In this document: positions 11,464-11,554 of the stretch, piece after piece | Numbering within the stretch: the first letter of the stretch is position 1 | How the letters are laid out: each line of letters opens with the position of its first letter | Source: Escherichia phage 121Q | Length of the DNA stretch: 64,000 bases | Sequence record: NC_025447.1 | Strand: one strand, 5' to 3' | Translations under genes and position numbers: made by a program | Notes under the pieces: model-generated | Seen by the model: the letters and a program-made list of their open reading frames with translations, nothing else | Databases searched by the model: none | Told to the model about the DNA's origin: nothing

Positions 11464-11554
11464 GGAAGGGTGGCAGAGCGGTTGATTGCACTCGCCTACT
11501 AAGCGAGCAAGTGTTAGAAATAACGCTTCGTGGGTTCAAATCCCACCTCTTTCG
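11464..11554 (+). tRNA. type II (Ser-like) tRNA with unusual anticodon loop CTACTAA
   Basis: Acceptor GGAAGGG/CTCTTTC (two G-U), anticodon stem CTCGC/GCGAG, long variable arm, T-arm GTGGG-TTCAAAT-CCCAC; middle triplet ACT. Confidence 0.5.

Follow-up and report, generated by a model that had tools for sequence, protein, structure and literature searches.

In the standard code the AGN box is split, with AGY specifying Ser and AGR specifying Arg, and a putative tRNA gene of Escherichia phage 121Q whose anticodon reads ACU therefore raises the question of whether a phage can carry a genuine serine tRNA with adenosine at the wobble position of such a box and, if so, what that tRNA decodes. Unmodified A34 tRNAs have been described as exceedingly rare, and as essentially absent from extant organisms where the codon box is split; in bacteria, A34 very rarely occurs in any anticodon but ACG, and why cells avoid unmodified A34 is an open question (PMC11066159). 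We addressed the locus within a stretch of 64,000 nucleotides of the phage genome (hereafter the window; GC content 33.9%), for which an original prediction had pointed out a tRNA with an atypical anticodon loop.

ARAGORN called tRNA-Ser(act) at 11464–11555(+) in the 64-kb window, and the Rfam covariance model RF00005 matched 11464–11554(+) over the full model (1–71) with 49.9 bits (E=1.1e-7; gathering score, 29). Both gave ACU as the anticodon. In the RF00005 alignment CUACUAA fills the 7-nt anticodon loop, U33 and A37 fall in the canonical register, and the anticodon is therefore A34-C35-U36. The parts of the gene are as follows.

11464–11554, + strand: tRNA-Ser(ACU), 91 nt, from ARAGORN, Rfam RF00005, the MFE fold, identical copies, covariation and the Ser-type body
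11464–11470 and 11547–11553, + strand: acceptor stem, including G2.U71 and G6.U67
11473–11489, + strand: D-arm
11491–11495 and 11503–11507, + strand: anticodon stem
11496–11502, + strand: anticodon loop CUACUAA
11498–11500, + strand: anticodon A34-C35-U36, from ARAGORN and RF00005
11509–11528, + strand: variable arm of 8 bp with a GAAA loop, from the MFE fold
11530–11546, + strand: T-arm
11554, + strand: discriminator G73

The interval 11464–11554 and the loop CUACUAA in the original prediction agree exactly with those found here. Its assignment to the Ser/Leu-type class II architecture is borne out by the covariance model, the fold and the long variable arm, and its reading of ACU as cognate to Ser AGU with A at the wobble position by the RF00005 register. 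The MFE fold contains the acceptor, anticodon and T arms together with the 8-bp variable arm, with a single-sequence z-score (−1.97) that is unremarkable on its own. With an RF00005 score above the curated threshold and a long variable-arm stem-loop, the gene belongs to the class II tRNAs; the canonical-register anticodon ACU (Ser AGU) and the Ser-type body place it outside the suppressor or recoding tRNAs. A covariance-model fold might have replaced ACU by a standard anticodon; it did not, and so ACU stands.

The gene is strongly conserved. The closest relatives of the window are the ~350-kb PBECO4/121Q-like jumbo coliphages of the genus Asteriusvirus. All 91 nt of the gene recur with 100% identity in 16 of their records, although identity across the neighbouring 1.2 kb is no more than 90–98% among the phages that share it. 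A diverged copy is present in phage EJP2, and the distant jumbo phages Salmonella phage Munch and Erwinia phage Hallingskeid have copies that are ~74% identical, with which BLAST grouped those of Salmonella phages 7t3, SE_PL and PHA46 and Klebsiella phage fENko-Kae01. The EJP2, Munch and Hallingskeid copies, chosen without regard to the loop sequence, were all called tRNA-Ser(act), and the loop CUACUAA is invariant across these three and the window. The anticodon stem, in contrast, is wholly exchanged among the diverged copies (CUCGC/GCGAG versus ACGGU/ACCGU), and compensatory changes extend to the variable arm, T stem and acceptor. Across 13 non-redundant homologues, 97.8% of the cells were paired and 20 of 25 pairs showed double compensatory changes, including covariation at all five variable-arm pairs; none of 500 shuffled controls reached any of these measures, and slid controls were 33–46% paired. 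On this comparative ground we regard the covariation as decisive for the reality of the predicted fold. The suspicion of a mis-folded call can be set aside, since ARAGORN and Rfam concur and the stems covary.

The sequence just upstream contains a near-consensus sigma-70 promoter (11 of 12 consensus matches) that ends 10 nt before tRNA position 1, and two further tRNA genes follow. ARAGORN found six tRNA genes on the + strand of the window, among them the following.

11421–11453, + strand: 33-nt promoter element GTACTTGACTAAATAGTTCAGTACTGATATAAT, with −35 TTGACT (11425–11430), a 17-nt spacer with TG and −10 TATAAT (11448–11453)
11563–11634, + strand: tRNA with a CAU anticodon (ARAGORN; Rfam, 68.4 bits)
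11728–11799, + strand: tRNA-Asn(GUU), the third gene of the tRNA-Ser(ACU) cluster (ARAGORN; Rfam, 54.3 bits)
9491–9577, + strand: tRNA-Ser(UGA), the other Ser tRNA of the phage, cognate to UCA (ARAGORN; Rfam, 61.7 bits)

An identical copy of the 33-nt promoter lies at 10662–10694(+), with 0 expected by chance; that copy precedes a small ORF, and the one at 11421–11453 precedes the tRNA-Ser(ACU) operon. The CAU tRNA begins 8 nt past the discriminator of tRNA-Ser(ACU) and is probably co-transcribed with it. It is a Met tRNA, or may be Ile2 reading AUA after lysidine modification; its homologue in the relative ph0011 is annotated as tRNA-Ile. Directly downstream of tRNA-Ser(UGA) are three successive, slightly overlapping ORFs of equal length (54 aa; 9690–9854, 9851–10015 and 10012–10176, + strand), and the annotations of Sharanji, Turkey3 and WPEC5 contain this 165-bp triplet as well. 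The trio is probably a tandem gene triplication. Elsewhere in the window we noted five near-identical 30-nt promoter-like elements, TTGACTTCGGTCAGCC(C/T)TTTTTG(T/C)TATAAT, with 0.14 expected by chance.

34698–34727, + strand: 30-nt promoter-like element
40784–40813, + strand: 30-nt promoter-like element
45279–45308, + strand: 30-nt promoter-like element
46561–46590, + strand: 30-nt promoter-like element
48729–48758, + strand: 30-nt promoter-like element

A small GAC-TTCG-GTC hairpin with a T-run behind it overlaps the −35 region of these elements, which may be combined terminator/promoter units.

The identity of the tRNA body points to serine. G73 and C11-G24 are identity elements of E. coli SerRS, which does not read the anticodon. 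C11-G24 is present in the window tRNA and invariant in 13 of 13 homologues; the discriminator is G73 in the window copy and A73 in the Munch and Hallingskeid copies. We scored the tRNA with its anticodon masked against Ser, Leu and Tyr profiles built from phage class II tRNAs that had been picked up incidentally. The window-type tRNA scored 48.2 bits for Ser, 10.9 for Leu and 17.8 for Tyr; the classifier was correct for 40 of 40 held-out controls and assigned 19 of 20 ACU tRNAs to Ser. Because SerRS ignores the anticodon, serylation of tRNA-Ser(ACU) is to be expected, as far as the sequence can tell. In the acceptor stem of the window copy G2 stands opposite U71, not C71, and the two G.U pairs, G2.U71 among them, might reduce charging. 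The original prediction had also allowed for a pseudo-tRNA, a notion that the 16 identical copies, the covariation, the strong promoter and the Ser-type body dispose of. We conclude that 11464–11554 is a genuine phage tRNA-Ser(ACU), not a misfold or a pseudogene.

The gene encodes no CCA; after G73 come CAAATTTC and the next tRNA, and CCA would for this reason have to be added post-transcriptionally. The phage group encodes a CCA-adding enzyme and an RNA ligase (Sharanji gp419 and gp521, at L227:34963–36075(−) and L228:31883–33025(−)), which suggests a capacity for tRNA maturation or repair, and the CCA-adding enzyme fits the CCA-less gene. In T4, likewise, some tRNA genes are CCA-less and reliant on the CCA-adding enzyme, and a free-standing homing endonuclease (SegB) lies inside the tRNA region. 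The T4 cluster, which includes tRNA-Ser(UGA), and that of the window both consist of phage tRNAs cognate to AT-rich codons, and the D-arm of tRNA-Ser(ACU) resembles that of T4-type tRNA-Ser; T4 is not known to have an A34 serine tRNA.

What such a tRNA reads can be judged from an experiment in which 15 A34 anticodons were placed in E. coli in one tRNA body with a loop identical to that of tRNA-Arg2 (PMC11066159). The cDNA of the ACU variant showed only T at position 34, meaning no inosine in E. coli, and this tRNA decoded AGU at 9.4% and AGG at 0.36%, with AGC and AGA below detection (PMC11066159). The phage loop, CU-ACU-AA, provides the same CU-ANN-AA context, and the two tRNAs share the anticodon and the host translation and modification machinery. 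They differ in that the engineered tRNA is artificial and Tyr-charged with a class I archaeal body, the orthogonal M. jannaschii tRNA-Tyr (PMC11066159), whereas tRNA-Ser(ACU) occurs naturally and has a class II body of the Ser type. Encoded A34 that is not turned to inosine has precedents in Mycoplasma tRNA-Thr(AGU) and yeast mitochondrial tRNA-Arg(ACG) (PMC11066159); however, those tRNAs are broad 'superwobble' readers of four-codon boxes in reduced genomes, while tRNA-Ser(ACU) serves a split box (AGY Ser/AGR Arg) in a host with a full tRNA set, where a narrow reader is expected.

A close counterpart is the tRNA-Ser(GCU) found in E. coli and in sister Asteriusviruses, which shares the amino-acid class and class II architecture with the ACU gene and, in the sister phages, the slot upstream of tRNA-CAU and tRNA-Asn. 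The loops CUGCUAA and CUACUAA differ at position 34 only, whereas the acceptor, D-arm, anticodon stem and variable arm are all unlike. With A34 instead of G34, reading of AGU only is predicted, as against AGC and AGU for tRNA-Ser(GCU).

We therefore lean towards a reading in which tRNA-Ser(ACU) is a functional, AGU-specific Watson-Crick decoder whose A34 is unmodified and which essentially does not read AGC; we consider this probable, with considerable room for doubt. Early transcription by the host RNA polymerase, from the near-consensus sigma-70 promoter, would cover this gene and the two tRNA genes after it; the transcript would be processed by RNase P and 3' exonucleases; CCA would be added; and host SerRS would charge the product by way of its long variable arm, its Ser-type body and its G73. 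Unmodified A34 would then impose strict Watson-Crick pairing with AGU, and the tRNA would supplement AGU decoding, leaving the rare AGC to the host tRNA-Ser(GCU). Expression, serylation, the modification state of A34 and a fitness benefit are what we infer here. The earlier suggestion of altered decoding thus holds in a narrow sense only: decoding is likely restricted to AGU rather than AGU and AGC, not changed by codon reassignment, and Ser would still be placed at a Ser codon.

Codon demand in the phage is consistent with an AGU decoder. In 99 ORFs of the window, AGU occurs at 23.0 and AGC at 3.8 per 1000, so that AGU makes up 86% of AGY and is sixfold more frequent than AGC, whereas a 50-kb sample of E. 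coli K-12 treated by the same method gave 8.1 and 16.3 per 1000, respectively (33% AGU). UCA (23.2 per 1000) ties with AGU as the top Ser codon of the phage, and these two are the Watson-Crick cognates of its two Ser tRNAs. The codons cognate to the tRNAs of the phage group are all enriched 2.8–6.2 fold over E. coli: AGU 2.8-fold, UCA 3.5, ACA 3.6, GGA 2.8 and AAU 3.0, as well as AGA (2.9-fold), whose tRNA-Arg(UCU) is found in Sharanji and EJP2 and not in the window, and AUA, which has the highest value (6.2-fold) and is cognate if the CAU tRNA is Ile2. The overrepresentation of AGU relative to the host places tRNA-Ser(ACU) among codon-compensating phage tRNAs.

The tRNA recurs widely in viral DNA. 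A first pattern, combining a phage-type D-arm, CUACUAA and a T-arm, retrieved 24 IMG/VR contigs, all called tRNA-Ser(act), and gave three matches in 185,579 cellular species genomes, a scan that is no fair census of bacteria because the D-arm in the pattern is phage-typical. Two of the three matches were real tRNAs, both on short, phage-like contigs of Clostridia MAGs, one of them (L134) with portal, terminase and head genes; the other (L133) encodes a ParB-like domain fused to a DNA methyltransferase. A D-arm-independent pattern identified 69 IMG/VR loci with a true tRNA-Ser(act) among the 120 matches listed. They comprise at least 49 distinct sequences in at least 27 families at 85% identity, with diverse D-arms. 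Among the matches listed, 37 of the 49 distinct sequences end in GCCA, and the genes usually lie within tRNA clusters, with GCU alongside in 2 of the 69 loci. A stem-specific IMG/VR scan, which held the exact anticodon stem of the window and left the anticodon free, yielded mostly tRNA-Thr(UGU) and no ACT in 101 and is uninformative on ACU. The IMG/VR loci collected also contained other non-Arg A34 candidates, namely Thr(AGU) (15), Leu(AAG) (8) and His(AUG) (3), and single candidate calls of Tyr(AUA) (L110:13008, 'ata'), Asn(AUU) and Ile(AAU), which suggests that phages use A34 more broadly than bacteria.

The IMG/VR loci also differ in composition according to the anticodon. Among the matches listed, GC content was 30–43% at ACU loci and reached up to 64% at GCU loci (p=0.0004); the median AGU frequency was 18.5 per 1000 at ACU loci versus 13.2 at GCU loci (p=0.0003); and AGC equalled or exceeded AGU at 4 of 56 ACU loci versus 26 of 73 GCU loci (Fisher p=0.0001), with codons counted in crudely called ORFs from stretches no longer than 15 kb. 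An earlier comparison limited to GGCAGAG D-arms had given AGU fractions of 0.76 for ACU and 0.74 for GCU (p=0.85) and was superseded by the D-arm-independent sets. Among the matches listed, ACU tRNAs are thus found almost only in phage DNA in which AGU is dominant.

Within Asteriusvirus the same locus exists in three allelic states. Twelve phages have ACU only, including Sharanji, whose record and paper list seven tRNAs, among them Ser(act) and Ser(tga), with GCU absent; tRNA-Ser(GCU) occupies the syntenic slot in PBECO4, WPEC5 and some 20 further relatives; and in Turkey3, WPEC3, JP4 and ph0011 the order is GCU, HNH endonuclease, ACU. In EJP2 both genes are present at separate sites. The ACU-only, GCU-only and ACU+GCU genomes have nearly the same backbone and codon usage, and codon usage therefore cannot account for the choice inside Asteriusvirus. 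Codon usage thus defines the settings in which A34 is tolerated or favoured, without deciding each individual case. Two simple origins of the ACU gene were considered and rejected: it is not a point mutant of the phage GCU tRNA, as the two form separate sequence lineages, and it does not come from the host, as blastn found no match in 5,426 E. coli genomes.

One explanation for the choice of allele is evasion of host defence, in which the A34 tRNA, with its different body, replaces or backs up a tRNA-Ser(GCU) whose G34 form is cleaved by an anticodon nuclease of the host or a competitor; being resistant to that nuclease, the phage tRNA would sustain AGY decoding during infection. Phage tRNAs with changes in the anticodon loop are predicted or shown to escape tRNA-targeting defences (PMC10264068, PMC11555353, PMC11464382), and Ser tRNAs are among the cleavage targets of ApeA. 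The restriction of the loop difference to position 34, the fast allelic turnover among near-identical genomes and the presence of an RNA ligase and a CCA-adding enzyme in the phage group would also be in keeping with evasion. However, a nuclease specific for tRNA-Ser(GCU) was not found in the literature searched, and an AGU-only decoder would not rescue AGC if the host tRNA-Ser(GCU) were destroyed. Moreover, the link between ACU and AGU-rich genomes is predicted by codon supply and not required by evasion, and many relatives thrive with GCU alone. We thus judge evasion unlikely, if worth keeping in mind.

The three allelic states at one locus and the HNH endonuclease between GCU and ACU in four phages bring up another explanation, that the two alleles are near-equivalent cassettes and that ACU hitch-hikes with the endonuclease or with promoter-repeat recombination instead of being favoured for decoding. 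In Turkey3 the same promoter element precedes both tRNA-Ser genes, so that GCU and HNH are flanked by the repeat and a single deletion between the copies would give the arrangement of the window. The segment concerned (L001:3770–4700) contains tRNA-Ser(GCU), the HNH homing endonuclease and the second promoter copy just upstream of the ACU gene, and equals an insertion at ~11421–11460 of the window. The identity of the 16 copies despite 2–10% divergence of the flanks fits recent spread, and in T4 the endonuclease SegB drives inheritance of the tRNA region. The occurrence of three allelic states in near-identical phages looks like homing- or repeat-mediated cassette turnover, and spread by HNH or promoter repeats plausibly explains how the allele moves within Asteriusvirus. 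As a full account, in which decoding plays no part, we find it rather doubtful, because ACU is kept through complete turnover of the stems in unrelated phages without that endonuclease and the restriction of ACU loci to AGU-rich DNA is left unexplained. Such spread accounts for the movement of the allele, not for its function, and is compatible with tRNA-Ser(ACU) being an AGU decoder.

Alternatively, A34 could be deaminated to inosine, in which case ICU would read both AGU and AGC and replace GCU fully, possibly misreading Arg AGA as Ser. Position 36 alone separates the loop CUACUAA from CUACGAA, the loop of the TadA substrate; the anticodon stem is exactly that of one phage tRNA-Arg(ACG) from IMG/VR (L061); and inosine would let ACU-only phages decode AGC themselves. 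The usual TadA substrate, bacterial tRNA-Arg(ICG), resembles the phage tRNA in its encoded A34 and in its anticodon stem, with G36 versus U36 in the phage, but it reads the four-codon Arg CGN box, where I34 is harmless. In the split AGN box I34 would mistranslate AGA, which occurs at 8.5 per 1000 in the phage and for which relatives carry tRNA-Arg(UCU). E. coli TadA leaves ACU in an identical loop unmodified, with AGC and AGA not read (PMC11066159), and an E. coli TadA query, validated by 99.4% of its hits being to annotated tadA, found no homologue in Asteriusvirus or Munch-like records at E≤1e-3 and none in the window; neither a host nor a phage deaminase for this anticodon is thus apparent. 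The Sharanji genome paper does list a phage 'tRNA-specific adenosine deaminase', Sharanji gp491 (WNN14772.1, L228:17357–17836(−)), which is annotated under the same name and would otherwise suggest an inosine mechanism. We rejected it as a TadA: gp491 aligns end to end with T4 dCMP deaminase (PDB 1vq2, E=5.9e-35), matches TadA structures at the zinc motif only (E about 1e-5), and scores 30 bits against the NCBIfam TadA model, whose cutoff is 150, so that it is a T4-type dCMP deaminase misannotated in the record. Inosine at position 34 is therefore very improbable. In favour of a mis-called fold, a pseudo-tRNA or a suppressor read in a shifted register (CUA), one could cite the rarity of non-ACG A34 anticodons in bacteria (PMC11066159), the z-score and the letters CUA within the loop, but such readings are barely credible given two concurring independent callers, canonical U33 and A37, strong conservation and covariation, the promoter and the occurrence of at least 27 families in phage tRNA clusters.

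tRNA-Ser(ACU) is already annotated in GenBank, and the literature searched contained nothing specific on it and no treatment or description of it as a class. When 'tRNA-Ser(act)' is called in a phage genome, it should not be dismissed as an artefact. The gene of 121Q is a natural A34 tRNA of a two-codon box that is conserved, promoter-driven and recurrent, both in the IMG/VR families and in several cultured jumbo phages of E. coli, Salmonella, Klebsiella and Erwinia. Beyond its probable role as an AGU decoder, the observations may be read jointly: natural tRNAs that serve a split box with unmodified A34 would have evolved in phages and been retained in dozens of lineages, and the G34/A34 swap at one locus of near-identical jumbo phages would reflect active selection, imposed either by an arms race with a putative anticodon nuclease specific for G34 of tRNA-Ser(GCU) or by faster decoding through A:U than through G:U. 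We offer this joint reading tentatively, as one with a modest chance of being right. The ACU-only, GCU-only and ACU+GCU phages, which infect E. coli K-12, constitute near-isogenic natural controls, so that decoding, modification and fitness with A34 and with G34 can be compared directly. The main value of tRNA-Ser(ACU) is as a natural system in which to study why unmodified A34 is avoided, and it would be such a system under either form of selection.
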